Source of the DNA: a virus
Length of the DNA stretch: 64,000 nt
Virus record (IMG/VR): IMGVR_UViG_3300045988_131275
Coordinates: 96,001-160,000 of that record
Reading direction: 5' to 3' (one strand)
Each line of letters begins with the position of its first letter. Position 1 is the stretch's first letter. Shown one piece after another: positions 8,589 to 63,886 of this stretch. The notes below the pieces were generated by a model that did no database searches, was not told the DNA's origin, and saw nothing but the letters and a program-made list of their open reading frames with translations. A program made the translations under genes and the position numbers.

Positions 8589-9241
8589 TTACCCCTCTCA
8601 TATTTCATTCTTCTCTCTACTTCTTTATCATTTTCTTCATCATTGAAGTATTTATAAGCTAACATCATAGGATAATTAGAATCTTTAGCTCTTGGATATA
8701 ACATATATTCACACCAATTAACTCCTCCATCGTCCCTAATCCAGCTTGTATCTTCAAATAAATTGCAGAAAACATTCTGATATGAATGCTTTTTATTTTG
8801 TACGAAATGATCTTTGATAATCGTAGATTTATCATACCCACTAATTTGTACAAGAACATTCTTAACCATGACTCTTTTACCTAATCTTACAAGCCATTTA
8901 ATAAATTCTCTGTATGTTTCATCAAACACCATATCTCTTAATGCAGCATCTACGACTAAGATATATTCATCTTTCACACGCAACATTCCTCTACTTCTTG
9001 TTCTGTTTCCATGCCAATCAACAAGATTATTTGTTCTTTCTCCAAATTCATCACATGAACTTGAACCATTATATCCATTCTTTTGAATGACATATACATC
9101 CATATCTTTTTCTGAGCCAGAAACTATCGGCAAATGTGCTAATACAGTATCAAGAATGTATCTTTTTTCAACTTGTGTGCGTCCTATAGGAGATACTGTT
9201 ATTGTTCCCGTTATGTAAGTCCAACTACTCAATATAATCAC
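8585..9241 (-). CDS. hypothetical protein
   Basis: 4-nt overlaps on both sides. Confidence 0.6.
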   Translation of the reverse strand: MIILSSWTYITGTITVSPIGRTQVEKRYILDTVLAHLPIVSGSEKDMDVYVIQKNGYNGSSSCDEFGERTNNLVDWHGNRTRSRGMLRVKDEYILVVDAALRDMVFDETYREFIKWLVRLGKRVMVKNVLVQISGYDKSTIIKDHFVQNKKHSYQNVFCNLFEDTSWIRDDGGVNWCEYMLYPRAKDSNYPMMLAYKYFNDEENDKEVERRMKYERGK

Positions 9242-9423
9242 TCACTTTCATTATCATCCTCTGGTTCATTGAAGTAAATTCTGTCAATAATTTCATAAAC
9301 TTCATCAACATCGAATGTTTCTACTTCTGGAAAATATTTTCCATTACAAGTTCCACCGTGGTAACGACTTGCATTATTATTTAACCTGTGTATTAATTCA
9401 CTTCTAAATTCAAGTGTTGTCAC
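9238..9423 (-). CDS. hypothetical protein
   Basis: packed co-directional ORF. Confidence 0.5.
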   Translation of the reverse strand: MTTLEFRSELIHRLNNNASRYHGGTCNGKYFPEVETFDVDEVYEIIDRIYFNEPEDDNESE

Positions 9424-9457
9424 TTCATCACACCTCCTGAAAGCAAGATTTCATGTA

Positions 9458-10057: not shown

Positions 10058-10366
10058 GTTACTGTTCAGAGGTATGCATAAGTCATTGTAAAAAATGACG
10101 AAATTTATTTTTTTATTTTGTGGATAACCATTCGCGGCAGGAAAAACTGTGTTTATAGTTTTTCCTGCTGTTCTTTTTGTTAAAAGTTATACACCAGATT
10201 CTAGTTTTGGGAACCCATTCTTGAAGTTTCAAGGTCTGCATGAATACTTTTTTTATTATAAAACAGCTATTTATCCACAGTCAGATTGACGAAAAGGCAC
10301 TTTCTGGTGATTCGCTTTTTTTCTATGTTTCTGTTATACTTTTTCTTAAGAAAGAGAGGTTCACTT

Positions 10367-10531
10367 ATGAATATTGATTTTAAAGAAGAACTTAGAAAAC
10401 GTGATGAACTTCTTGCCGGTTATCTCAAACAGATTGAAATCCAGGAGGAATTTATCCAGAAACAAAAAGAATTGATTGAATATCTGGAAGAGCATATCTC
10501 AAAGATTACAGACATTGTCAGTGGCGTTTGA
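10367..10531 (+). CDS. small coiled-coil protein inside the IS (54 aa)
   Basis: MNIDFKEELRKRDELLAGYLKQIEIQEEF...; RBS AGAGAGG upstream. Confidence 0.5.
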   Translation: MNIDFKEELRKRDELLAGYLKQIEIQEEFIQKQKELIEYLEEHISKITDIVSGV

Positions 10532-10556
10532 TTATAACTGTACTGGAGGAAAACAT

Positions 10557-12230
10557 ATGCCTGATGCGTATGATTACATCTCACTCATGTGTCGGCTGAA
10601 AGCCGCACAGACAAGAAATAAAGAACTGGAATCCGGTGAACACTATATTAAGCTGAAAGAACTCCATCAAAAGGAGTGCAGAGCCTATGAACGTAAGATT
10701 CAGGCGCTGCTAACGGAGATAGCGGATGCACATAAAGAAACCATCCGTGTCCGCAATTACTGGTTTCAGGTACTGGAGGATATGCTGCTGGAGTTTGAGG
10801 CAATGCAGAAAAAAGCTGACCAGAAGCTTCGGGAGATGGAGAAACGTGCTCTTCTTGCTGAGAGACAAAGAGATGATGCATTGGAGAAAGCAAAAGAATT
10901 CCGCCTTAAGTTCTATGAAACCGCCACCCAGCTGGAAGAAGAACAGGGAAAGAACCTGAAACTTCATGCACAGATCAACCGTGATTATGAAAATTCATCT
11001 ATTCCTTCTTCAAAAGCCATCCGGCGGAAAAAGATTGCAAACAGCAGGGAAAAAACAGGACGGAAACCCGGTGGACAGCCAGGACATAAAGGGCATGGCC
11101 GAAAAAAGCAGGAGCCTACACATCCGGTAATCCTCCTTCCGCCACCAGAAGAAGTGCTTGAAGACTGTGCTTTTAAAAAGACAGCAAGAACAATCATAAA
11201 ACAACTGGTAAGTATCCGTGTGGTCCTGGATGTAACAGAATACCATGCAGATGTTTATTATAACAGCCAGACCGGCGAACGTGCACACGCTGCATTTCCG
11301 GATGGTGTTATTGATGATGTGAATTATGATGGCAACATCCGGGCATTTTTGTTCCTTCTGAACAATGACTGCTGTACCTCTATTGATAAAAGCAGGAAGT
11401 TCCTGTCTGATCTGACGGATGGAAAACTGAATATTTCCAAAGGCATGATAAGTAAACTCAGCAGGGAGTTTGCTTTAAAAACAGAGCCCGAGCGCAAGGC
11501 AGCCTATGCGGACATGCTGCTTTCCCCTGTTATGCATACAGATTGTACAAGCGGCAGGGAAAACGGAAAAAGCTGTCAGATCTATGTCTGTGCCACACCA
11601 GACGGAAAAGCATTGTACTTCGCTCGTGAGAAAAAAGGACACGAGGGAGTAAAAGGGACTGTTACAGAGGATTATCAGGGGATCCTTGTCCATGACCATG
11701 ATATTACCTTTTATAATTATGGAGCAGATCACCAGGAATGCCTTGCCCATGTGCTGCGTTACCTGAAAGACAGCATGGATAATGAACCAGACCGCACCTG
11801 GAACAAAGAGATGCGTTCACTGGTACAGGAGATGATCCATTTCCGAAACGAATGCCAGCCATTTCAGGAACCGGATCCGGTAAAGGTATCTGAATTCGAA
11901 AAAAGATACCGTGAGATACTGGAAATAGCCAGGGCGGAATACGGAAATGTTCCGGCAAACAATTATTACAGAGACGGGTATAATTTATTCCTGAGAATGG
12001 AGAAATATATGCAGAACCATTTGCTGTTCCTGCATGATTCCCGAATACCTGCCACTAATAATGAAGCCGAAAGGCTTCTAAGAAACTATAAGCGGAAACA
12101 GGCGCAGGCTGTGACATTTAGGAGTTTCGAAAGTATCGATTATCTCTGCCAATGCATGAGCATGCTTGTTTTGGTGCGGCTAGAAGAACCAGCGAATATA
12201 TTTGACAGAGTATCCAGAATATTTGGATAA
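10557..12230 (+). CDS. IS66-family transposase
   Basis: GGAGG RBS before ATG at 10557; N-terminal coiled coil, basic GRKPGGQPGHKGHGRK stretch, C-terminal ...IPATNNEAERLLR..., typical of IS66 TnpC-type proteins. Confidence 0.8.
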   Translation: MPDAYDYISLMCRLKAAQTRNKELESGEHYIKLKELHQKECRAYERKIQALLTEIADAHKETIRVRNYWFQVLEDMLLEFEAMQKKADQKLREMEKRALLAERQRDDALEKAKEFRLKFYETATQLEEEQGKNLKLHAQINRDYENSSIPSSKAIRRKKIANSREKTGRKPGGQPGHKGHGRKKQEPTHPVILLPPPEEVLEDCAFKKTARTIIKQLVSIRVVLDVTEYHADVYYNSQTGERAHAAFPDGVIDDVNYDGNIRAFLFLLNNDCCTSIDKSRKFLSDLTDGKLNISKGMISKLSREFALKTEPERKAAYADMLLSPVMHTDCTSGRENGKSCQIYVCATPDGKALYFAREKKGHEGVKGTVTEDYQGILVHDHDITFYNYGADHQECLAHVLRYLKDSMDNEPDRTWNKEMRSLVQEMIHFRNECQPFQEPDPVKVSEFEKRYREILEIARAEYGNVPANNYYRDGYNLFLRMEKYMQNHLLFLHDSRIPATNNEAERLLRNYKRKQAQAVTFRSFESIDYLCQCMSMLVLVRLEEPANIFDRVSRIFG

Positions 12231-20224: not shown

Positions 20225-20235
20225 TTTTCTTTTAA

Positions 20236-20308
20236 TGGAAACTATAGGACTTGAACCTATACCCTACAGTTCTAAGACCGTCACTCTCCCAAATTGAGCT
20301 AAGTTTCC
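20236..20308 (-). tRNA. tRNA gene with atypical 6-nt anticodon loop (CUUAGA; nominal anticodon UAG)
   Basis: Hand-folded: acceptor GGAAACU/AGUUUCC, U8, D arm GCUC/GAGU with GG, T arm AUAGG-UUCAAGU-CCUAU, 5-nt variable loop; anticodon stem ACGGU/ACUGU leaves only 6 loop nt. Confidence 0.6.
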
Positions 20309-20424
20309 AAAAAATGCGTACAAAAACAACGATGAAAGCCGACTTTCATTTGTGATATTTCTCTATATTTAGTTGTAATTAATTGGAATAATCGCAGAAA
20401 CGCTATGATTAATAAAGATTTTGC

Positions 20425-43893: not shown

Positions 43894-44082
43894 ATGGCAT
43901 ATAGCCCAAAATCACAAAAAGATTATAATGATAGATGTACAGTTGTAAAACTTAAATATACACCAGAAGAAACGGAAGAATGTGCAAGAATGAAACGGTA
44001 TGCAAAAGATAATAACATACCAATGAGCGTATATATTAAGAAGCTAATACAGGATGATCTTGACAGAAAAGGTTATAAATAA
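43894..44082 (+). CDS. ribbon-helix-helix-like small protein
   Basis: ...CTVVKLKYTPEETEECARMKRYAKDNNIPMSVYIKKLIQDDL resembles RHH/MobC-like fold (weak); AAGGAAGGTG RBS. Confidence 0.55.
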   Translation: MAYSPKSQKDYNDRCTVVKLKYTPEETEECARMKRYAKDNNIPMSVYIKKLIQDDLDRKGYK

Positions 44083-44086
44083 ATAT

Positions 44087-44533
44087 ATGATAGACGATAA
44101 AATAACAAAAGAGCACATAGAACATTTAAGAGACATAAACTATTATGATGCTTTAAAGTTGTTTGATAATGGAAATATACGTTATTTATATGATGATTTA
44201 TTTATAGAGTATATACGCCATATAATAAGGAAATGTTTATTTATAACTGACACTGACAGCATAACAGATATAATATATAAATTTTTTATTGTATCTGGTA
44301 ACGTGTCAAGATGTTTAGATATGCTTAGATATAATAATATACAGTATAATCAAAAGTTATCAAATGGAAGATATAGAATCAATAAAGAAGATATATACAA
44401 CGCCTTAAATAATGGAAGATGTGCAGATATAGAAATAGATTTTGTTGCACATTTATTGTGGTATGGAAGAAATTACAATGAATTAGATAGTTATATAGAT
44501 ACTATGTTGTCAAAGATAAAACAGTTGTATTAA
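44087..44533 (+). CDS. hypothetical protein
   Basis: Track ORF 44054.. trimmed to the first ATG after the upstream stop. Confidence 0.5.
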   Translation: MIDDKITKEHIEHLRDINYYDALKLFDNGNIRYLYDDLFIEYIRHIIRKCLFITDTDSITDIIYKFFIVSGNVSRCLDMLRYNNIQYNQKLSNGRYRINKEDIYNALNNGRCADIEIDFVAHLLWYGRNYNELDSYIDTMLSKIKQLY

Positions 44534-45740
44534 CCACATATAATAGGAAGTAACACAATCAACCTATTATGATCTGCATAACCTGTTATCATGCTCAAAA
44601 TGTACAGATAGCGTTATAAGCGTGTATTTGACGTTTTAAGGCGTTTTAATGCTTATATGATAATTATATAGGCTCTTGCGCTTAAAGTCGTTTATATGGC
44701 GTTTTAGAGTGTTGTTTTTAGAGTAGGTTGTACTTATGAGCGTATATCTGGGTAAGTTTAGAGCGTGCAGCATGATGATATTTTAGTATCATTTTAATAT
44801 ATTTTTAAGTGTATTTTTACGTCGAAATGTGCGCTATTTTATGCAAGAATATTGTATATTTATACAGTTTATTTGATGTATTTTTATGCAAAAAAGTGTA
44901 TAGAATAGCGTTGTTTTTTGTGTCTGGAAATAGGGAAAATATTGCGGTAAAGTGTGCGGAAAATTGTCTGATTTATGGCGTGAAGGTGGTGTAAATTTGT
45001 CTGTTTGGAGTGTGGTTTTTTATGTGATTATTGGATAATTTTATCTTGTTTTTATGTGGTTTTTATGCCATGTAATGGGATAATTTTATTATGATCTGCT
45101 GTTATATTTTAATGCCTGGATGGTGTTAGAATGTAGTATCTATAGGCGTTTATGATGGTAGAATTGTGATGGAATTGTTATGCAGATATGATGTAATTGT
45201 ACATTGTTTAGTGTGTTAATCTATGTGTATTTACGTTGGATTATGTGAGTATTTGTGTTGTGTATTGCATGGTATATTTAGGCATTATAATGGTAATATT
45301 ATGAGCGTAATGTCAGGCGTATAGTGTGGCATATCATGGATAGATATAGATGTATATTGTAGGTTATATGTGTAATGTGGTGTGAGATATAATGTATATT
45401 ATATTGTATATTAGTGTGGATTATGTATGATATATTTGATGTTATTATGTGGGTGTGGTGTATTGAGTTAATATGATTTTGTAGTGTGTTTGGGATGTGA
45501 TTTTGTCTGCTGTTGTGCGTCCAGATTGTTTTATTTCGTCCAGATTTGTGTGTTATGTGAGTGTGTTACAATTTTTGTGTTACATTTGTGTATTATGGTG
45601 TAGTGGTGGGCTATCCCATTTTTACCGCTGTTTTTGATGGTAAAGTGGAGTGTATTAGTCTATTTTATTACATTTTTGTGGTGTAAGTGGTGATATGATT
45701 TTGTGTTATGATTTTGTATTATAATCTTGTAATTTAATTT

Positions 45741-45760
45741 TTAGGTGTAATTACACCTAA
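45741..45760. repeat. perfect 20-bp palindrome TTAGGTGTAATTACACCTAA
   Basis: Read directly. Confidence 0.9.
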
Positions 45761-45796
45761 ACGAACAGAATTGACCAATAGTCATTTATACGCATT

Positions 45797-45846
45797 TTTT
45801 CTCTCATTTTCTCTTGTTTTCTCTAATTTTCTCACTTTTTCATTTT
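45797..45846. repeat. phased 10-bp repeats TTTTCTCNNN x4 plus a degenerate fifth
   Basis: ttttctctca ttttctcttg ttttctctaa ttttctcact ttttcatttt. Confidence 0.85.
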
Positions 45847-47120
45847 TCGAGTATACTATAATAATATTTATAATTGTCTATACAATTCAATCTGCCCGTC
45901 CCGTGATCCTGTCCAGAATCATGATAAAATTTTAGTTTCATCACACTAACTTTTGTTTATCTGGTATACCGCCCCTTGTTTTTTGCCATGTTAAAAATGT
46001 CAAGAAATAACAAAACTTGACTTTTTTACACTTCCCTCAAAAGTGTGAAAGTTAGTTTTAGTCAACAATAGCAAGGCTTTTCGGGATTTTATATCAGAGT
46101 ACATTAATCCAATTTTATAATCATGTTTTACTATTGTATACCAATATGATGGGGATAGTTTACATTTATAGAAATAACACAATACTGTCATATTCCCTGA
46201 TGTGTTCAACTCACACTGCTCGTCCAAAAATCAAAACTGGTAATCTATCCACACTCCACACTCACCTCAACAAAAAATTCCTATCCTCATCCCACATTAC
46301 AAATTGTATAAAATCTACACACAATTCTCCAAAATAATCAAAATGAGTTCGACACCGACTTCGACCGCACCCTTACATATCAACGCAAAATAAATTTTCT
46401 GACAATTCTAAAACACCAATTTTCACCCAAAATTACCTGCCCTAAATCACAAAATCCCTTGCAAATCCTATCTATTATCGAAGTCCTCTCGAAGTGATGC
46501 CAATGTGATCACAATTACAATTCCAGATATTTCACTCCATCTTAATCCTGTATTATCACAAATTTCCTTATATTTCCTATCTAAAACGCAGCAATCACTT
46601 CCTATAATAAGCACATATCACCACCCCATTTTAACCAAAATAACCACCCAAAACACCTATCTCGAAGTCCATATTTTTACATCCTCAAAAACATCTATCT
46701 GAATTGTGTCAAACTTTCACACAATTCTAATTGATAAAATTCACTCAAAAAATACATCATAGCAATCTCTAAAATCAATTCTATACTCACTATTCTAATG
46801 TACAACTTAAAATAAACATTACAACTACCCTCACCTGAACAACTTAGCATCTGTACATTACAATTTTCAAATTAAATCTACATCATATAATCTACAACAA
46901 AATATCTCAAACAGAGAATCTTGTATAGGAAAATAAGAAGGGGGGGTACTTTTACATCTATAGAAAACCACTACTCTCATATCCCATCTATCCCCAAATT
47001 TTCACCAGTAAAAAATAGATCCTATTTATTTCAAATGGAGAATCTATAACCAGAAACATATAAACCAAATATGAGAGAAATATTAATCATCAAAATAAAA
47101 TAAAAAAGGAGATTACTCAA

Positions 47121-47723
47121 ATGACATATTCAATTAACGATTTAATATCAACATTAATTTGTTCATCATCCAATTATCCGATTATATCTTTTTCAGCATA
47201 TTTAAGAAATAAGTATAACAATTTCGATTGTGATTACTGGGAAAGACATTTATATGAATCTGGATTATTGAATGATAAATATGAATACTTATCTGAGATA
47301 TTTAACAATTATAAAATTGAGATATCATCGGCAGCATACAATCAGATTGAAATGATAACAAACAAATATCTTACCGATAAGAAAATATACATACCAGGAT
47401 TAACATCAAAACCATATTATTACTATCCATCAAGAGGAAATAGTAAATCAATCAGAGAGATATGTTATTTCATAAAGTCAATATCAGATTTAGAAAAAGA
47501 AAAGAATCAATTTTCATATAATCCGTATTTAGCAAAATATACAGCACAAAATTATAAAGCTGATATAGAGAATTTATACAAGAGAAGAATTTCTCAAAAG
47601 ATACTTAACTCATATGAAACACAAAATAACTCTACAAAACAGAGAAGTAATAACAAAGAAGAAATGAGCTGCTTAAAAATTATTGCCGATAGAAACAATA
47701 CAAATAAGAAATTTCACAAATAA
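47121..47723 (+). CDS. hypothetical protein
   Basis: AAGGAG RBS; first gene after the ORF-free region. Confidence 0.6.
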   Translation: MTYSINDLISTLICSSSNYPIISFSAYLRNKYNNFDCDYWERHLYESGLLNDKYEYLSEIFNNYKIEISSAAYNQIEMITNKYLTDKKIYIPGLTSKPYYYYPSRGNSKSIREICYFIKSISDLEKEKNQFSYNPYLAKYTAQNYKADIENLYKRRISQKILNSYETQNNSTKQRSNNKEEMSCLKIIADRNNTNKKFHK

Positions 47724-52703: not shown

Positions 52704-55472
52704 TTGAGTAAACATTTGACATCACAAAGATATGTATTTAAAATTCATTCTTCAAGACTTAGAAGAAAAAAATGGAATTTAAAATTGACACCAAATCAAG
52801 CAAGAGAAAATCAAGAGCTTATTGCTTTAAGCGAAAGTCAAATAATGAGATTTATTGATGAGATAAATAATATCACAGATACAGAACTTAAAATTTCAAA
52901 TATTAAATCTGAAATCAAGAAATTAAAATTTGAGAAAAATTTATCTATATCAAGACCTAAAATCAAGAAGTTATATAATGATTTAGATAAATATCAATTC
53001 AAAAAGGATTATGTGTGTGTTGTAATTGATAAGGTTAAAGATTTTGAATACATTTATAAACATGGCTTTAAAATCAACAATGTTACATATAGATGGTTAC
53101 TTGGAACTACTGGTGGAGTAAAAAACAATACTGTAGTATTTGTAAATGAAAAATTACTACCTGAATTAAAAAAACGTATAGATAACGGTCGAAATTTACA
53201 AAAAGAATTTGCTCCTGCAAAACTTGAAGCTTATATTGCTCTGGTATGCAGCTCTTCTATTCCTGTATCAATGCCAAATGGGATCGTTGTTGTTCATGAT
53301 TGTATTACAAAATTCAAATCAGATGTAATTGAATTAGATGATACTGGACTTGATCAACCAAGTATGAAATTTATTAAAAATAAAGATGTAGAGCTAAACG
53401 ATAGTGACGGATATGGACTTGCTATGCCATCTCTTATGGAACGTTGGGGATATGAAATCGGAGAAGATTTTTTATTACCTGGTTGTGTTATTAGAAATTC
53501 ATTTTGTAAAGGTGCTGTATTTCCTATTGATTTTCAGAAGTTTGCACAAGATCATGGTTTTACAGAAATAACAGATGTGTGGGGAAATACATATGACATT
53601 AATGAAATAGAACTCATTTTAACAGAGTCGATGCTAAAATTGTGGGACTCCTATTCTTCTCTTGAATCATATCTTGAAAATTGTGAAAAGAATCATTACA
53701 CATTTGCAATTACAAAAGCTTCGGAAGAAGAATTAGAAAATGTAAGAACAATGAATTACCAGTTTTTACAAAGTTATGATTTTACAGATGAACAAATTGA
53801 TGAATTAATCGCACCAACTGTAAATGAAATTAAAGAAATTTTAGATGATGATTATAGAAAAACAATATTATACACAAAAGGTATAGGACTTAATGAGAAA
53901 AATATTCAACATTTAGATAGTTCATTTGCAACAGCATTGATGATTGAACCTGAAATGGCTAATGATCCATTTATCAAATCCCAGATTCACTCCATGATTA
54001 GAAAGCGTATTGATGAAGCTAAAGTTGGGGTTTTAAAAGTTCCTGCAAATTATTCCTTAGTATCAGGAGATCCGTATTCTCTATGTCAGTCCATGTTTGG
54101 AATGAAAGTTACTGGACTATTAAAAGCTGGACAAGTCTATTCTAAATATTGGATTGATAAAGGTGTTGATAAAATTGTAAGTTTTCGTGCGCCAATGACC
54201 TCGCATAATAATATCAGGCTTCTTGAAGTTGTACATAATGAAACAATGGATGAATTTTATCAATATATGACAACTCCTACTATTTTTAATAGTTGGGATA
54301 CATGTGCGGAAGCGATGAATGGTTTTGATAAAGACGGAGATTGTGTAATTAATACTTCATTTGATCTATTAGTAAAAAATACTAAACGATTACCTGCTAT
54401 TGTATGTGTGCAAAGAAAAGCTCCAAAATGTATTCCTACAGATGATGATATTATGAGATCAAATATTAATAGTTTTGGAAATGCCGTAGGTGGAGTAACA
54501 AATAAAATTACATCAATGTTTGAAGTTAAATCGAATTTCGCACAAGGAACAAGAGAATATAATTTGCTCGATTATAGAATCAAATGTGGTCAGTTATACC
54601 AGCAAAATGCGATTGATAAAACTAAAGGGATTGAGGCGAAACCAATGCCTGATAATTGGTATAACTGGATTTCAAATAAACTTACAAAAGCAAAAGACTC
54701 TCACCAGAAAAAAGAATTTTGGATCAACCGAAAAATTATCGCAGATAAAAAGCCTTATTTTATGCAATATATTTATCCATCAGAACGCATAGAATTAAAT
54801 AATTATCGTAAGAAAAATAATGAAAAGTGTCTTATGAGATTTAGAATTTCTCTTGATGAATTAATGTACAAAGAGAATAAATCAAGAGAAGAAAATAAAT
54901 TTATTAAGTGTTATTATGATCGAATGCCACTCGGTATGGGTAAATGTACAATTAATAAAATTTGTTGGAGAATTGAAGAAAAGTTTGATAACCTTGTTTA
55001 CTCTTCTAATGAAAATTTTGATTATTCTATTATGAAGAGTAATGTAACATATTCGGATGCGGTGTATAAGAAAATTAAAAAAATATATGAAACTTATAGA
55101 AAAGAAATATCTAGTTACATGCAATATGCTAAATCCGAAAGGCTTAAATCAGATGAACGTCAAATTCAAAAATATATACTAAAAGAACAATTTAAAGAAA
55201 AATGCCTATTAGAGTGTCCTAATGAAGATGAGTTATGTAATATTGTTTTAGATTTATGTTATTCAAAATCTAAATATAGTAAACAATTTGCATGGGATAT
55301 TTGTGGTGAAGTATTTATACAGAATTTATTAAGACGTAAGAATTATAAAATCTCATATCCAACACTTGATGATAATGGAAATATTGAGTATTTAGGCATG
55401 AAATTTTCTATGAAAGAAACTGAAATTAAAGTAAATGTAGATTTGGAGGACAATGAATGCCAGTTGTATTAA
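52704..55472 (+). CDS. YonO-like single-subunit two-barrel RNA polymerase (RdRP-like)
   Basis: KIVSFRAPMTSHNNIRLLEVV ... AMNGFDKDGDCVINT: DxDGD metal-binding loop in the context seen in YonO/QDE-1-type polymerases; TTG start with GGAGG RBS. Confidence 0.65.
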   Translation: MSKHLTSQRYVFKIHSSRLRRKKWNLKLTPNQARENQELIALSESQIMRFIDEINNITDTELKISNIKSEIKKLKFEKNLSISRPKIKKLYNDLDKYQFKKDYVCVVIDKVKDFEYIYKHGFKINNVTYRWLLGTTGGVKNNTVVFVNEKLLPELKKRIDNGRNLQKEFAPAKLEAYIALVCSSSIPVSMPNGIVVVHDCITKFKSDVIELDDTGLDQPSMKFIKNKDVELNDSDGYGLAMPSLMERWGYEIGEDFLLPGCVIRNSFCKGAVFPIDFQKFAQDHGFTEITDVWGNTYDINEIELILTESMLKLWDSYSSLESYLENCEKNHYTFAITKASEEELENVRTMNYQFLQSYDFTDEQIDELIAPTVNEIKEILDDDYRKTILYTKGIGLNEKNIQHLDSSFATALMIEPEMANDPFIKSQIHSMIRKRIDEAKVGVLKVPANYSLVSGDPYSLCQSMFGMKVTGLLKAGQVYSKYWIDKGVDKIVSFRAPMTSHNNIRLLEVVHNETMDEFYQYMTTPTIFNSWDTCAEAMNGFDKDGDCVINTSFDLLVKNTKRLPAIVCVQRKAPKCIPTDDDIMRSNINSFGNAVGGVTNKITSMFEVKSNFAQGTREYNLLDYRIKCGQLYQQNAIDKTKGIEAKPMPDNWYNWISNKLTKAKDSHQKKEFWINRKIIADKKPYFMQYIYPSERIELNNYRKKNNEKCLMRFRISLDELMYKENKSREENKFIKCYYDRMPLGMGKCTINKICWRIEEKFDNLVYSSNENFDYSIMKSNVTYSDAVYKKIKKIYETYRKEISSYMQYAKSERLKSDERQIQKYILKEQFKEKCLLECPNEDELCNIVLDLCYSKSKYSKQFAWDICGEVFIQNLLRRKNYKISYPTLDDNGNIEYLGMKFSMKETEIKVNVDLEDNECQLY

Positions 55473-57003: not shown

Positions 57004-57545
57004 AATTCACCACTACTCTTCTATTCGGATATTCACAAGAGACTAAGATTGATTTATGATGGTCAATCGGTTCAGATGCAGATGAACTGTGATGCTGCGA
57101 GGTAGGATGATAATACCAGAATTATCATAATTAAAATCTAAAAAAAGAATATGTCATACATATTATTATAGATATTATTGGGTAAGTATAATTTATACTT
57201 AACATTGGAAAAATTCAAGATGATTCGTTAATCAACATTACGTTTCATTAATGCGAAAATGCAAGATTTTATTATTTCGGTATTTCAACAATTTGTAAAT
57301 TTGATAAAACAATATACGTTTCGCTAATATTAATTCTTAAAAGAATATATCGGGCGAAAAGCCTAAACATATAAAGGAACGAATTATTCAAATTCGATTG
57401 AAACATTTGTGTTTCAGATGAAAATTAAAAGATTTTGTGCAATTTTTGTACAGATTTTTAGCAAATTGGTTGAGATTATGAAGAAATCTTAGTCTGTTAT
57501 GAATATTTGAATAAAAATACAGTTATAATTAGTTTGGAGACTAAT

Positions 57546-57554
57546 TGGTATAAT
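57546..57554 (+). promoter_or_regulatory. extended -10 promoter TGgTATAAT upstream of tRNA
   Basis: About 75 nt before the tRNA 5' end. Confidence 0.4.
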
Positions 57555-57628
57555 AATTGGCGGTTGCACTATTATTTCCCCTTTCTTTAAAATGGTGTGA
57601 TCGCTGATTTTCTGTTTATAAAAAATAA

Positions 57629-57702
57629 TGCAGAGTGGAGCAGTCTGGAAGCTCGTCTGGCTCATACCCAGAAGGTCATAGGTTCAAATCCTATCTCTGC
57701 TA
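57629..57702 (+). tRNA. tRNA with CAU anticodon (Met or Ile2 type)
   Basis: Hand-folded: U8, D arm GAGC/GCUC, anticodon arm UCUGG-CUCAUAC-CCAGA, T arm AUAGG-UUCAAAU-CCUAU, acceptor GCAGAG/CUCUGC with U1:U72 mismatch; no encoded CCA. Confidence 0.75.
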
Positions 57703-57771
57703 TTACTCTCCTACTTGGAGAAATAAATGCAAAGGACGTGAATTGTTATAAAAGCAATTAGTAAAAAAGAA

Positions 57772-57927
57772 ATGGAATATCTTATGAAGAAAGGTTTTAA
57801 ATTTCATGAAGATATTTTTAAGACATATAGTGGTAAGAATAAATACTACTATAGAGAATGTAATGCTATTAATAAGGCATTAGATGATTACCATAATGGA
57901 TTAAATGTTGTGGAATATGTTAAGTAA
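57772..57927 (+). CDS. hypothetical protein (51 aa)
   Basis: MEYLMKKGFKFHEDIFKTYSGKNKYYYRECNAINKALDDYHNGLNVVEYVK; the frame is open further upstream without a canonical start. Confidence 0.35.
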   Translation: MEYLMKKGFKFHEDIFKTYSGKNKYYYRECNAINKALDDYHNGLNVVEYVK

Positions 57928-57962
57928 TTAAGAAACAAAAATATATTATGAAAGGTGGTAAA

Positions 57963-59194
57963 ATGCCATCAGTACTTATTTTTACGATACAAATGCTCTG
58001 CTATTATTACAGAAAGATGTATTAAAAGAAAAATTTTATATTAGTTCTACATCACTTCAAGAACTAGAACACATCAAAGTCTCACGTAACAAAGAAGAAC
58101 AAGTTAAATATGCAGCACGTAAAATTCTACATATACTTGATGAAAACGAATCTTCATACGGTGTTATCGTTACCGATTCTAAGATTATAGATATTATCAA
58201 TCAACATGGATTGGAAAATACACCAGATAATCAAATATGTGCGTGTGCTTCGACAATTGAAGATGTCATTTTTATTACAAATGACATTGCATGTAAATCA
58301 ATTGCAAGACACATCTTTGGATTAAGAACAGAAACAGTTAAAGAAGAAGAAAAAGATTTATATACTGGTTTTATTGAAACGTCATTATCTGAAACAGAAA
58401 TGGCTTATTTTTATGAACATTTACAAGAAAATATTTATGATTTATTAGACAATCAATATCTTGTATTAAAAGATAATGATAATAAAATTGTGGATATTAT
58501 GGTTTGGCGTGATGAAATGTATCAGAATGTTAAATTCCCTACAATTCGTTCAAACTATTTTGGAAATGTAAAACCTTTAAATGGTGATGTTTTTCAACAA
58601 ATGGCTTTAAATAGTTTTAGTAATAATCAAATTACTATGATTAAAGGCGCAGCTGGTACAGGAAAATCATATTTAGCTGTTGGATATTTAATGTGGTTAT
58701 TAGAGAAACGAAAAATCGAAAAAATTATTGTATTTTGTAATACTGTTGCTACTGCTAATTCTGCAAAGCTTGGGTATTACCCAGGGACAAAGGATGAGAA
58801 GTTGTTAGATTCATCAATCGGTAACATGTTATCTGCTAAACTTGGGGACAGTTTTGGACTTGAAGAAATGATGGCAAAAGGCAGAATCCAACTCTTGCCA
58901 ATGTCTGACATTAGAGGTTTTGATACTAATGGAATGTGTGCAGGTATTTATATTACAGAAGCGCAAAACATGGATATATCATTAATGAAACTTGCCTTAC
59001 AAAGAATTGGAGAAGACTCAATTTGTATCATAGATGGTGATTACAACGCACAAGTTGATTTATCTCAATATGCAGGTTCTAATAATGGTATGCGTAGAAT
59101 GTCAGAAGTTTTTAGAGGTCAAGACTTCTACGGAGAAGTAGAATTGCAAAATATTTATAGAAGCAAAATTGCGAAAATCGCTGAAAATATGTGA
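57963..59194 (+). CDS. phoH: PIN-domain PhoH-like ATPase (frame change needed near 57979-57983)
   Basis: Walker A MIKGAAGTGKS. The upstream frame reads ...YFYDTNALLLLQKDVL... (PIN-like). The ATG at 57963 with its RBS is in another frame; adding one T to the T5 run joins them. Confidence 0.7.
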
Positions 59195-62570: not shown

Positions 62571-63611
62571 GTGAGATTATTGGATGGTAAAATTGCAGAT
62601 AGATCTGTTGAAATAACAGATGAAGAATGGCAAACAGTAAATGAATTTAATAGAGAAATGGTTGAGGATTACCTTGATAATCAAGCTGACCTTTCTGTGA
62701 AAACTTTGCCAGCATATAAATCTGGATTAAGGATTTTCTTTACTTGGGTTAGGGACAATCTCAAGGACAAGAATTTTACAGATATTAAAAAGAAAGAATT
62801 TCAAAAATATCTTAATTGGTTAACCAAAAGAGGTTTTTCTGATTCTGGTATTAAATTTAAAAAATCTGCTGTAAGTACATTTTGCAATTATGTAATGATG
62901 ATGTATGAGGAAGAATATCCTACATTTCGTAATTTCACAATTGGGCTTAAAGTAGTACAGACAGGATATGTTCATGAAAAAGTTCCACTTACGCCAGATG
63001 AATATATTAATTTATGTCAAGAACTTGAAAAACGTGAAGAATGGCAAATGTTAGCATATCTTACATTTTCTTACAGTACAGGATGTAGACGTGCAGAAGC
63101 TAGACAATTACTCAAGGAAGTCATTGATTATTCTGCAAATGAAAAGAAAATCAAAGTTCTGGATGAAGATGGACATGAATATGAAACTATTTCAAAGCAG
63201 TATTTGACTCACACTATTCGTTGCAAAGGTGCATCTCTTGTGGGTAAACCACGTAAACTTAAATTTGGTGATGATGCAATGCAATGGTTAAAGAAATGGA
63301 TTGAAGTGCGTGGTGAAGATGACTGTCCTTATATGTTTGTAATTAAATCTAAAGATGGAAAAGAAGTTAGACAAGTGAGTGAAAGCACTTTTAATAATTG
63401 GTGTCAAGGATTATTTACACAAATTGTTGGACGTAGGGTGCATCCTCACCTATTCAGGGAGTCAAGAGCTACAAACCTTGTTGTGTTTCAGCATAAAGCA
63501 CCAGAGGTAGCTCAGAAATTACTAGGACATAATCAAGTCACTACAACTTTAGATCATTATATTATTCGTAATGATGAAAATGATGAGTCTGATGAAGCAT
63601 TTACTGATTGA
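62571..63611 (+). CDS. tyrosine recombinase / phage integrase
   Basis: GCRRAEAR (Arg I), HPHLFRESRAT (HxxR), LLGH, LDHYI (Tyr); GTG/TTG start uncertain. Confidence 0.85.
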   Translation: MRLLDGKIADRSVEITDEEWQTVNEFNREMVEDYLDNQADLSVKTLPAYKSGLRIFFTWVRDNLKDKNFTDIKKKEFQKYLNWLTKRGFSDSGIKFKKSAVSTFCNYVMMMYEEEYPTFRNFTIGLKVVQTGYVHEKVPLTPDEYINLCQELEKREEWQMLAYLTFSYSTGCRRAEARQLLKEVIDYSANEKKIKVLDEDGHEYETISKQYLTHTIRCKGASLVGKPRKLKFGDDAMQWLKKWIEVRGEDDCPYMFVIKSKDGKEVRQVSESTFNNWCQGLFTQIVGRRVHPHLFRESRATNLVVFQHKAPEVAQKLLGHNQVTTTLDHYIIRNDENDESDEAFTD

Positions 63612-63886
63612 TGTAAAATACCCCCCCCCACATCAAAGCCCGTAGTGTAGACCAAACACACCTATATGGAAACAAGCGTAAGACATCGGACTGTCAAATC
63701 GCTTCGGGCAAATACATTTTTCTATATATTTTTCATATATATTCTTCAAAGAGACATAATTTTTCATATGATCTCTTCTCCTGAAAAGGGCAGCTTACTA
63801 CTGCCCTATCTAAAAGTAAACTTGTCCTTTACAATATTTTCCAATTGTGATAATGTAAAAATATCAAAAAATTGGAGGTGTTATAT

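Follow-up and report, generated by a model that had tools for sequence, protein, structure and literature searches.

At positions 44534-47120 of the window analysed here, a 64,000-nt stretch of viral DNA, lies its largest gap free of open reading frames of at least 80 aa (2,587 nt; the runner-up, 57004-58210, is 1,207 nt long and contains a tRNA-Met), which bears out the original prediction of a 2.6-kb ORF-free region. The gene for a YonO-type single-subunit RNA polymerase (52704-55472, plus strand) is found 5.6 kb downstream of the region, and its product shares 42% identity with that of c-st, 40% with that of PMBT24 and 27% with that of SPbeta. Other downstream genes include those for an antirepressor, an initiator-like protein, a PhoH-like protein, a head protease, an exonuclease and an integrase, and the terminase genes are outside the window. 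Relatives were binned with Lachnospiraceae, and the phage groups with SPbeta, c-st and the Enterocloster phages as a siphophage of Lachnospiraceae of approximately 170 kb. As such, the crAss-like or unknown context implied earlier was mistaken: this is an SPbeta/c-st-type phage of Firmicutes, to which the literature on crAss non-coding regions has no relevance.

A protein-coding gene or decayed pseudogene is out as an explanation of the gap. Recoding TAG or TGA as sense gives no convincing ORF in 44534-47120, none of 17 family members has an ORF in the region, so that relatives do not carry ordinary genes here as had been considered, and the variation among them has no 3-nt periodicity (0.65/0.67/0.66 and 0.47/0.47/0.46, versus 0.45/0.34/0.56 for a coding control). 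The features of the region, together with a distant copy of its motif, are as follows.

44534..44599: left boundary segment; separates the stop of ORF 44054-44533 from the C-poor arm
44600..45750, plus strand: left arm, the more distant one from the polymerase gene; C-poor and G/T-rich
44750..45500: part of the left arm with helical phasing, period 11.25 bp, ~67 turns
45336..45506, plus strand: C-free run of 171 nt, the longest in the window (next: 86 nt)
45740..45761: perfect palindrome of 22 nt, TTTAGGTGTAATTACACCTAAA, with the skew switch at its centre
45751..46150: core of ~400 nt, of ordinary to C-rich composition
46139..46171, plus strand: inner copy of the core motif, with the sequence TACCAATATGATGGGGATAGTTTACATTTATAG; located where the G-poor arm starts and directed toward the polymerase gene
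46200..46935, plus strand: right arm, G-poor and C/A-rich (G ~6%, C 26%), on the polymerase-gene side
46940..46963, plus strand: outer copy of the core motif, with the sequence GGGGGGGTACTTTTACATCTATAG; borders the G-poor arm on its outer side
46964..47120, plus strand: upstream region of the first early-side gene (47121-47723)
63610..63629, minus strand: third copy of the motif, GGGGGGGGGTATTTTACATC, in reverse orientation and overlapping the stop codon of the tyrosine integrase gene (62571-63611)

The left boundary segment holds the near-invariant blocks ATAATAGGAA, TGTTATCATG and TACAGATAGC (at most 1 of 17 sequences differing in the family alignment), and in half of the relatives homology begins exactly at 44531, the upstream gene having been replaced. 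At the opposite end, the block CACTACTCTCATAT in 46964..47120 is conserved, and the same interval has a ribosome-binding site at 47104-47113 (AAAAGGAGAT).

The two arms are set apart by strand composition. On the plus strand the left arm (44600-45750) is A.24, C.063, G.245 and T.45, and the interval 46200-47000 is A.38, C.26, G.069 and T.29, such that the strand reading 5'->3' toward the core is C-poor in both arms and nearly cytosine-free in the left one. As to whether these skews are extreme, that of the left arm (+0.62 to +0.80) is far beyond the rest of the window (maximum outside the region +0.32 to +0.50), whereas that of the right arm (-0.52 to -0.75, versus -0.48 to -0.73 outside) is a marginal outlier only and barely exceeds that of minus-strand coding DNA in the window. 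With G doubled, the arms keep to the average G+C content of the genome, at.31 and.33. Sense-strand third codon positions in this genome are already C-poor (C.07-.08) and yet have G at only.11-.14, and the G enrichment of the arms therefore requires selection.

The C-free run had been placed exactly, and homologous C-free runs of 98-226 nt are present in relatives. The chance probability near 1e-12 that had been attached to it is right for a C content of 15% and becomes ~1e-3 at the arm's own 6.3% C; even against that composition the run is non-random, and it is conserved. The G-free runs reported at 46612-46663 and 46854-46913 are likewise exact in position but not exceptional, given that such runs reach 87 nt in coding DNA elsewhere. 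In the right arm the 24-mer at 46222-46245 is near-invariant, and the best conserved block of the whole region is 46331-46430; the TTATG motif shows no special conservation.

The region is retained in approximately 40 related contigs, where its identity is 77-85%, higher than the 69-73% of the adjacent ORF, and both arms are kept in 19 anchored and 43 pattern-matched loci. In several relatives, whose polymerases are 66-76% identical, the 10 kb upstream of the polymerase gene contain nothing of the kind. In both arms the depleted base is shunned even at variable sites: in the left arm T is replaced by C in 19% of T columns, versus replacement of A by G in 52% of A columns, and in the right arm a change to G is seen in only 2% of T and C columns. 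The earlier phrase "a strand designed to lack cytosines" is as such a fair description. One could nonetheless read the arms as a neutral mutational footprint, a functionless spacer in which an often single-stranded strand has lost C by deamination; the C-poor strand has elevated T in the window (45%), as it has in TR-TP2 and at the left end of Perkons, and the polarity fits strands exposed through end resection. C-to-T decay cannot, however, yield the doubling of G (which reaches 45% in PMBT24), and a region that is better conserved than the adjacent gene, that keeps its helical phase through indels and whose retained C's are better conserved and located in GCGT boxes is poorly accounted for by drift. 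We regard this explanation as highly improbable.

Between the arms, the change in composition is sharp, with C/G counts per 50 nt across 45,750 passing from 2/11 and 1/8 to 10/5 and 12/2. A dyad is present at this position in every family member, its sequence differing each time while its position and symmetry are kept (L015 has a two-sided compensatory change), and we predict the genome opening point to be at the palindrome, ~45,750 +/- 30. The arms themselves do not pair. As originally observed, no inverted repeat connects them (local alignment score 28, versus 31 +/- 4 in shuffles), and no giant hairpin or degenerate inverted repeat joining them was found. An inverted terminal repeat or protelomerase-type hairpin telomere was also rejected, as the arms are not complementary and the palindrome sequence is not conserved.

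The core is a candidate short terminal repeat or pac block. Its size is comparable to that of the 404-bp repeat of c-st, the 264-bp repeat of Perkons and the ~250-bp coverage block that follows the opening point of SPbeta. It includes a 10-nt tandem, TTTTCTCNNN, in 4.5 copies (45797-45841) and near-invariant blocks at 46006-46035 and 46067-46076, and its left part (~45545-45895) is a cassette swapped between subgroups of the family. An iteron or centromere tandem array (e.g. sopC-like) was considered and discarded, as TRF shows local arrays of 2-4 copies only.

At the inner border of the G-poor arm lies a motif of ~30 nt (GGGGG-TA-N-TTTACA) that is common to SPbeta, BUCT082 (TACCAATATATGGGGGTATATTTACATCTAATG), L015, L018, L081, L083 and L085, with a variant in PMBT24; the outer copy is also present in L015, L018 and L083. 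A regular expression for the motif has 9 matches in 406 kb, both strands, versus ~0.9 expected, and 8 of the 9 adjoin a G-poor arm, all 8 of them pointing toward the RNA polymerase gene. Identity with the MrpR operator (SPBRE) was rejected, the 15-bp element of the yonP, yonT and yonX promoter regions being the unrelated ACAAATACAAATAATATGTATA, as was identity with the YonO late promoter, the start site of which is upstream of yonK.

Where ends or a pac site have been mapped in PMBT24, Perkons, c-st and SPbeta, they are bracketed by the same succession of C-poor arm, short core and G-poor arm. Position 1 of PMBT24 is its pac site as determined by PhageTerm (PMC11035940). A C-free run of 215 nt extends to the last base of that genome and a 218-nt G-free run occupies 317-534; at +1.0 and -1.0, the skews of the two arms are the extremes of the whole genome. 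Perkons has 264-bp terminal repeats by PhageTerm (PMC13245101), and its two arms are again the skew extremes of the genome (in 200-nt windows, most positive at 136,372 and most negative at 557). In c-st a G-free run (454-577) is located just inside the 404-bp terminal repeat, and the right end is mildly C-poor only. SPbeta has its C-poor then G-poor pair in the yonP-yonR gap, which is the location of the mapped opening point. The record boundary of BUCT082 falls between its arms, although no documentation shows this start to be a mapped end, and smaller versions of the layout were seen in L081, L085 and TR-TP2. The architecture is absent from SPP1 and T7, which served as controls.

The regions at the ends of SPbeta, PMBT24, Perkons and c-st are, like that of the window, non-coding, located upstream of and co-oriented with a YonO-type polymerase gene, and of the same polarity, and C rises abruptly at the very position of each mapped junction (PMBT24, Perkons, c-st) and likewise at 45,750 in the window. 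The window's region also precedes the late genes, with which it is co-oriented. The synteny of region and polymerase matches that of SPbeta, PMBT24, BUCT082 and Perkons, and SPbeta and BUCT082 also have GGGGG-TA-TTTACA at the inner border of the G-poor arm. Beyond this motif, sequence similarity between the window's region and those of PMBT24, SPbeta and c-st amounts to AT-rich noise. There are differences as well: the ends of these four phages are mapped whereas the window's family is known here from sequence alone, the arms of the window are two to three times longer (0.75-1.15 kb versus 0.3-0.55 kb), and a second copy of the motif, the 11.25-bp phasing and the variable dyad set the window apart from its mapped relatives. 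The publications consulted on these phages make no mention of skewed arms, and the core motif common with SPbeta, the position-conserved dyad and the phasing of the left arm are new here.

The comparisons establish the architecture, the conservation of its sequence and composition, its recurrence in relatives and its coincidence with their mapped ends. On these grounds we consider it somewhat probable that the region is the genome-opening (pac or terminal-repeat) region of a phage of the SPbeta, c-st and Enterocloster group, and that its arms act as DNA. A packaging or terminal-repeat region had been one of several roles originally listed, with none chosen, and it is this one that the comparison with PMBT24, Perkons, c-st and SPbeta supports. 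Contig ends near the region are scattered over 43.3-46.0 kb with no pile-up, and large contigs run through it; this is compatible with headful packaging or a collapsed terminal repeat and does not constitute positive evidence.

Within the left arm there is a further level of order. In the phased segment, G-rich half-turns alternate with A/T-only half-turns over 750 bp, the occupancy by G rising within one period from 6-9% to 34-46%. The normalised spectral power is 29.9, versus ~5 in shuffles, of which 0 of 200 reach 29.9, and all 16 close relatives retain a period of 11.1-11.3 bp despite indels. To our knowledge this is among the longest coherent helical-phase signals in phage genomes. Self-identity at lags of 11, 22 and 45 is.36-.39 over a baseline of.32, and a tandem repeat or iteron origin of the signal was rejected, the phase being one of composition and not of repeated sequence. 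The phasing is absent from the other lineages tested. Being specific to the window's family, it cannot account for a skew that is shared across lineages.

Phased, bent DNA and dyads are common at origins, and it may be asked if the region is instead a replication origin or terminus, in which the phased left arm and the dyad would be initiator-binding and unwinding elements and the skew a product of replication asymmetry. Gene orientation diverges at ~43.5-47 kb, where the large-scale skew flips sign, a weak replication-initiator-like HTH protein is encoded 2.4 kb downstream of the region, and origin and pac functions can coexist. The local polarity is, however, the reverse of that expected for a bidirectional or rolling-circle origin at the centre, as had been noted originally and as is correct: the G-rich strands point toward the centre. 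Furthermore, skews of 0.6-1.0 far exceed those associated with replication as well as the third-codon-position skew of this genome (+0.25), the phasing is not found in other lineages, and the architecture falls at packaging ends in four cultured relatives. The DnaA-box-like 9-mers that had been pointed out are indeed present, at 45415-45423 (minus) and 46245-46253 (plus), but they are at chance level and not conserved; the window has 36 near-matches against 26.6 +/- 5.4 expected, of which 3 are in the region with no cluster above chance, and the 9-mer at 46245 is absent in all relatives. An origin or terminus is, in our estimation, unlikely.

A third explanation holds that the arms are transcribed but untranslated spacers, yielding either outward, G-poor, C-rich unstructured RNAs (Rho-loading leaders) or inward C-free RNAs that regulate early expression or packaging. 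T7 packaging requires transcription by the phage RNA polymerase into the concatemer junction. A G-free transcript cannot carry AUG, GUG or UUG starts, and the sense strands of this genome are already C-poor. The motif, which includes a -35-like TTTACA, is directed into the right arm and recurs ~155 nt upstream of the first gene; in SPbeta, though, it is without a matching -10 element, and the yonP promoter and MrpR operator of that phage are downstream of the arm. The motif's distinctness from the YonO late promoter also weighs against this explanation, as does the finding that promoter-like sites are no commoner than in shuffles and that terminators were not found. Rfam scans (gathering, E <= 1) returned two tRNAs only, both outside the region. 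Only one tile folds strongly (z = -5.4), and the family does not conserve it; a structured RNA in the left arm was rejected on the grounds that the RNAalifold consensus of the best-folding tile is -0.9 kcal/mol with 0 compensatory pairs and that its hairpin is lost in relatives. The long non-coding RNAs proposed at the outset are accordingly unsupported, and we assign a low probability to transcribed spacers. Conservation at 80% identity is uninformative for sigma-70 promoter or terminator logic. The arms may alternatively have a transcription-based or protein-binding role.

Returning to the genome-opening reading, it is reasonable to postulate that terminase would cut at or beside the dyad, ~45,750, and that the G:C pairs of both arms are turned such that the strand ending 3' at the cut has the G's and almost no C's. 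The arms would then work as DNA, and not as RNA, while the C-poor strand is exposed single-stranded. Such exposure could come about during the 5'->3' resection of injected or cut ends before circularisation or terminal-repeat annealing, in 3' tails left unreplicated on a linear replicating genome, or through strand displacement during terminal-repeat duplication. PMBT24 encodes RecA, a RecJ-type exonuclease, SSB and Gam. A C-free exposed strand would be spared deamination to uracil, breakage by uracil excision and the formation of G-C hairpins, and the doubled G would hold the G+C of the duplex at the genome average. The phasing of the left arm suggests a wrapped or curved nucleoprotein complex on what would be the first-packaged side. 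The core or terminal repeat is C-rich on the plus strand, however, and cytosine avoidance thus leaves some of the would-be exposed stretches uncovered.

If the reading holds, genome ends or packaging sites could be read at the meeting point of the strongest opposite GC skews in SPbeta, the botulinum-toxin phage c-st, and gut Lachnospiraceae and Enterocloster phages, which would be of use for metagenome-assembled genomes, where virion DNA does not exist. A broader and more tentative proposal, which we regard as possible but doubtful, is that the 0.3-1.1-kb arms flanking the opening point in large Firmicutes phages of the SPbeta, c-st and Enterocloster group are telomere-like subterminal elements, in which a C-free 3'-ending strand has been selected because it spends time as ssDNA and has to evade deamination, uracil excision and folding, and that the skew extremes mark the ends. 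Were this the case, the two genome-wide GC-skew extremes would predict physical ends from sequence alone, uncultured phages included, and would point to an unrecognised constraint on bacterial DNA ends, a strand-specific avoidance of cytosine with a parallel in the G-rich 3' strand of telomeres. In eukaryotic telomeres the strand ending 3' at the chromosome end is likewise G-rich and C-poor at both ends; unlike them, the arms have no simple repeats and no telomerase, are subterminal inside a short repeat, and in PMBT24 belong to a headful-packaged genome. In the tractable SPbeta, three elements are testable: core motif, junction dyad and arm orientation.

Comparison with other well-known systems is similarly partial. 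The SPP1 pac, composed of pacL, pacC and pacR, has a cleavage site flanked by DNA that binds the small subunit of terminase (a candidate arrangement here) and bent, phased tracts on one side; unlike the region, it measures ~270 bp, lies inside gene 1 and has neither strand skew nor kilobase arms. The T7 concatemer junction resembles the region in having a short terminal repeat beside non-coding subterminal DNA, and an adjacent palindrome has been proposed to prime duplication; hairpin-primed duplication of the T7 terminal repeat was reportedly described by Chung, Nardone and Hinkle in 1990. A faint G-poor stretch follows the left repeat of T7, but it is weak, ~200 nt long and one-sided, the two have no sequence in common, and the T7 RNA polymerase is unrelated. 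Convergence of G-rich strands on a central site is also a feature of KOPS/SRS, which are directed toward dif, and of Chi. Unlike these systems, the arms have in common no polar k-mer above z ~3. AGCGT is enriched in the left arm (6 observed versus 0.6 expected, the motif having been picked post hoc) and missing from the right one; it resembles the Bacillus Chi AGCGG, and its orientation fits an enzyme entering from the cut.

The 2,587-nt stretch at 44534-47120, which the original prediction had described as gene-free, exceeds every other ORF-free gap in the 64-kb window (a gap being defined as containing no ORF of 80 aa or more). Base counts on the plus strand agree with the mirror-image composition described for its two arms, with A.24, C.063, G.245 and T.45 in the left arm (44600-45750) and A.38, C.26, G.069 and T.29 in the right arm (46200-47000). 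The 171-nt C-free run reported at 45336-45506 was confirmed to the nucleotide, as were both G-free runs reported on the other side; no other C-free run in the window exceeds 86 nt. The chance value of 1e-12 attached to the C-free run is reproduced at 15% C, but against the arm's own 6.3% C it becomes ~1e-3 for 171 nt. Measured by skew against the rest of the window, the two arms are unequally exceptional: the left arm (+0.62 to +0.80, by window size) lies far outside the maximum found elsewhere (+0.32 to +0.50), whereas the right arm (-0.52 to -0.75) is barely beyond the most skewed minus strand coding DNA (-0.48 to -0.73). As had been noted, no inverted repeat connects the arms (local alignment score 28 versus 31 +/- 4 for composition-matched random sequences). 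The total G+C of the arms (.31 and.33) equals the genome average; sense-strand third codon positions of the same genome already contain C at.07-.08, but G at only.11-.14. The arms are distinguished by G:C pairs that are all turned one way, with G doubled at constant G+C, and since loss of C through deamination cannot increase G, selection is required for this composition.

The arrangement is retained among close relatives, hereafter the family. Nineteen IMG/VR loci were located using the first gene after the region (47121-47723, plus strand; 47-76% aa identity among relatives) as an anchor, and in all 19, scored wherever the upstream sequence was long enough, a C-depleted arm followed by a G-depleted arm is found at the same distance. 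The same two-arm order is observed in 43 loci retrieved by a near-invariant 24-mer, and the C-free runs of relatives span 98-226 nt. Most members match the window at 77-85% identity across the region, versus 69-73% at the DNA level for the neighboring protein-coding gene. The original prediction had allowed that relatives might carry ordinary genes here; no family member has an ORF in the region under any genetic code, and 3-nt periodicity is absent from its variable sites across the family. Even at variable sites the depleted base is avoided: in the family alignment, 19% of left-arm T columns have T>C versus 52% of A columns with A>G, and 2% of right-arm T and C columns have changes to G. Only about half of the relatives have the ORF upstream of the region (44054-44533). 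The anchor gene weakly matches the LPD38 domain (E = 0.003, short of the Pfam threshold), which occurs in the 'polyvalent' proteins of phages and conjugative elements.

Between 44750 and 45500, the sequence switches every half-turn between G-rich and A/T-only, with a period of 11.25 bp that stays coherent over ~67 turns (normalised power 29.9 versus about 5 for shuffles, a value reached by 0 of 200 shuffles). A period of 11.1-11.3 bp is kept in 16 of 16 close relatives although indels make the segment anywhere between 692 and 776 nt long; a sequence-level repeat was rejected as the source of the signal. The phasing is absent from the arms of other lineages and is therefore a family-specific layer. 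The few cytosines retained in the left arm are better conserved and lie in (A/G)GCGT boxes. Across the polymerase-distal arms (here the left arm) of five lineages, AGCGT occurs 14 times versus 1.6 expected (5 versus 0.7 outside the window's own family), with no enrichment in the other arm; as the motif was chosen after seeing the data, this is suggestive only. That the arms are simply a neutral mutational footprint is contradicted by the enrichment of G, by stronger conservation of the region than of the adjacent gene, and by maintenance of the 11.25-bp phase.

Comparison beyond the family is enabled by the ORF at 52704-55472 (plus strand, 922 aa), a YonO-type single-subunit (two-barrel) RNA polymerase that is 42% identical to the split homologue of Clostridium phage c-st, 39-40% to those of Enterocloster phages including PMBT24, 29% to that of Bacillus phage BUCT082 and 27% to SPbeta YonO. 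By its polymerase we assign the phage to the SPbeta/c-st group, and on the same basis a crAss-like identity was rejected. Relatives whose polymerases are 66-96% identical to that of the window fall in bins with Lachnospiraceae (Acetatifactor, Frisingicoccus, Roseburia, Lachnoclostridium, isolate MD308), and the nearest deposited record is MT835469 (176 kb, unannotated, human faeces). To the right of the region, the plus strand block also encodes the following:

AntA antirepressor, plus strand
Replication-initiator-like HTH protein (weak match), plus strand
CoiA-type nuclease, plus strand
PhoH-like protein, plus strand
Head protease, plus strand
Metallophosphatase exonuclease, plus strand
62571-63611, plus strand, tyrosine integrase

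Although no sequence similarity is detectable between the region and its counterparts in PMBT24, SPbeta and c-st, the layout recurs. Position 1 of PMBT24 was set by its authors at the pac site (the packaging initiation site) found with PhageTerm (PMC11035940); its record ends in a 215-nt C-free stretch (45% G) and, after ~300 nt, begins with a 218-nt G-free stretch, and the extreme 200-nt skew windows (+1.0 and -1.0) of the complete 99,962-bp genome are exactly these two stretches. Perkons (136,811 bp) ends in 264-bp direct terminal repeats defined with PhageTerm (PMC13245101), and its most positive 200-nt skew window abuts the right repeat while the most negative lies just inside the left. 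In c-st, a 124-nt G-free run lies just inside the left terminal repeat (404 bp), and G is in mild excess ahead of the right repeat. The yonP-yonR gap of SPbeta, in which restriction and read mapping placed the genome opening point, contains a C-poor stretch of ~400 nt and a G-poor stretch of ~300 nt. BUCT082 has a C-free run at its record end and a G-poor arm at its record start, Thomasclavelia phage TR-TP2 has a 900-nt G-poor arm within a 2.46-kb CDS-free gap upstream of the polymerase, and the Lachnospiraceae relatives L081 and L085 (isolate MD308) have versions with arms of roughly 500 nt. In every case the G-rich, C-poor strand is that running 5'->3' toward the center; this rule draws on about seven lineages, with documented ends in only four. 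Across each mapped junction, C per 50 nt jumps from 0-5 to 7-13, and the same jump is found in the window at ~45,750. SPP1, whose pac lies inside a gene, does not have this architecture, nor does T7, which has only a faint one-sided stretch. In SPbeta-type phages a precise ~250-bp block of extra coverage follows the opening point, for which the authors gave no overhang reading (bioRxiv 10.1101/2021.11.22.469490); its size matches the 264-bp and 404-bp repeats of Perkons and c-st, and these phages may likewise carry short terminal repeats.

The borders of the G-poor arm are marked by a motif of ~30 nt, found in the window as TACCAATATGATGGGGATAGTTTACATTTATAG (46139-46171) and GGGGGGGTACTTTTACATCTATAG (46940-46963). 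SPbeta and BUCT082 have TACCAATATATGGGGGTATATTTACATCTAATG at the inner border of the arm, ~200 nt from the record start in BUCT082, and PMBT24 has GATGGGGGGTACTTTCAGACA ~250 nt from its pac site. A regular expression for the motif returned nine matches in 406 kb (both strands) versus about 0.9 expected, eight of which adjoin a G-poor arm, all eight oriented toward the polymerase gene. The ninth is a third GGGGG-TA-TTTACA copy (63610-63629, minus strand), in reverse orientation and overlapping the integrase stop codon; it sits in an imperfect hairpin (TGATGT...ACATCA) and is without skewed flanks. Identification of the motif as a YonO late promoter or as SPBRE, the operator of the SPbeta regulator MrpR, was rejected. 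The upstream regions of SPbeta yonP, yonT and yonX have ACAAATACAAATAATATGTATA in common (AF020713, about 64,110-64,200, 66,400-66,490 and 68,770-68,810), presumably the SPBRE bound by MrpR, recovered from sequence alone.

At the skew switch lies a perfect 22-nt palindrome (45740-45761). A dyad occupies the same aligned place in every family member, in at least five different sequences; in one relative (L015) both arms are changed from the commonest form with symmetry kept (GTTGGAAATCCAAC versus GTTGCAAATGCAAC). The ~350 nt around it (45545-45895) form a cassette exchanged between family subgroups, wholly different between them (L001, L007, L008, L010, L016, L017), and a palindrome specific to each version occupies the same place in the alignment.

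The element would be of a kind already known, a phage packaging or terminal region, and the architecture, conserved in sequence and composition, coincides with the mapped ends of relatives. The SPbeta, PMBT24 and Perkons papers examined describe neither the mirrored G:C orientation over kilobase arms nor the motif, the variable dyad or the 11.25-bp phasing, and a full-text literature search returned nothing on skew at pac sites or terminal repeats. By analogy with these relatives, we infer that the region serves as the genome opening region, with the dyad (~45,750) probably marking either the cut or the left-hand boundary of a short terminal repeat; the ~400-nt core would then be the counterpart of the Perkons and c-st terminal repeats (264-404 bp) and of the ~250-bp SPbeta-type block. 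Metagenomic contigs pass straight through the region and therefore lend no direct support, this being expected under headful packaging and a collapsed terminal repeat alike. A replication origin or terminus may be a co-located function, but the skew polarity is, as originally remarked, wrong for an ordinary bidirectional origin, and DnaA boxes are at chance level: the DnaA-like 9-mers reported on the two arms are present (45415 and 46245), but near-matches of this kind occur at chance frequency (36 in the window versus 26.6 +/- 5.4 expected), and that at 46245 is missing in all relatives. A role based on transcription is possible, whether through outward G-poor leaders, which would lack start codons and be good Rho substrates, or through inward C-free transcripts. 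It is without positive support, however; there is no conserved structure or Rfam match in favor of the long non-coding RNA originally suggested, promoters and terminators are not in excess, and the known SPbeta promoter lies beyond the arm.

We favor an action of the arms at the level of DNA. The strands that would be exposed, namely the plus strand of the left arm and the minus strand of the right, are exactly the cytosine-free ones, and exposure could arise through 5'->3' resection from the ends, through strand displacement while the terminal repeat is duplicated, or through the unreplicated 3' tails of a linear replicating genome, which are those of Watson's concatemer model. A strand free of cytosine would be immune to deamination to uracil and subsequent breakage by uracil excision, and G-C hairpins would not form in it. 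With lengths of 0.3-1.1 kb, the arms match resection tracts or Okazaki fragments in scale, and PMBT24 encodes RecA, a RecJ-type exonuclease, SSB and Gam. In T7, a palindrome has been proposed to prime duplication of the terminal repeat, and the window's dyad similarly adjoins the putative repeat. The phased segment hints at a nucleoprotein complex, wrapped or curved, on the flank that is packaged first in PMBT24.

Several further features were observed. The ORF-free gap that ranks second in size (57004-58210, 1,207 nt, with a tRNA-Met at 57629-57702) lies downstream of the polymerase gene, in the position that corresponds to the SPbeta yonN-yonK gap, the site of the YonO transcription start and of an unannotated ncRNA. 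In PMBT24, two pure A/T stretches (136 and 144 nt, within 8856-9438) lie directly upstream of the polymerase gene. Under the standard code, the minus strand block at 1-43000 contains short, fragmented ORFs. With TGA read as sense, minus strand ORFs of 200 aa or more grow in total length from 3,698 to 5,464 aa, with barely any change on the plus strand; this could reflect TGA recoding or simply many small genes. A tRNA-like gene (20235-20309, minus strand; Rfam 56 bits), to which ARAGORN assigns no anticodon, has an anticodon loop of apparently 8 nt (TCTTAGAA) and could be a suppressor or frameshift-type tRNA. Last, an IS66-family transposase ORF (10476-12230, plus strand) lies on the opposite strand to its neighbors within a GC-rich island (about 10.0-12.3 kb; 37-45% G+C in a 30% G+C genome), and two perfect TTATCCACA 9-mers are found inverted just upstream of it, at 10119 (minus) and 10271 (plus).
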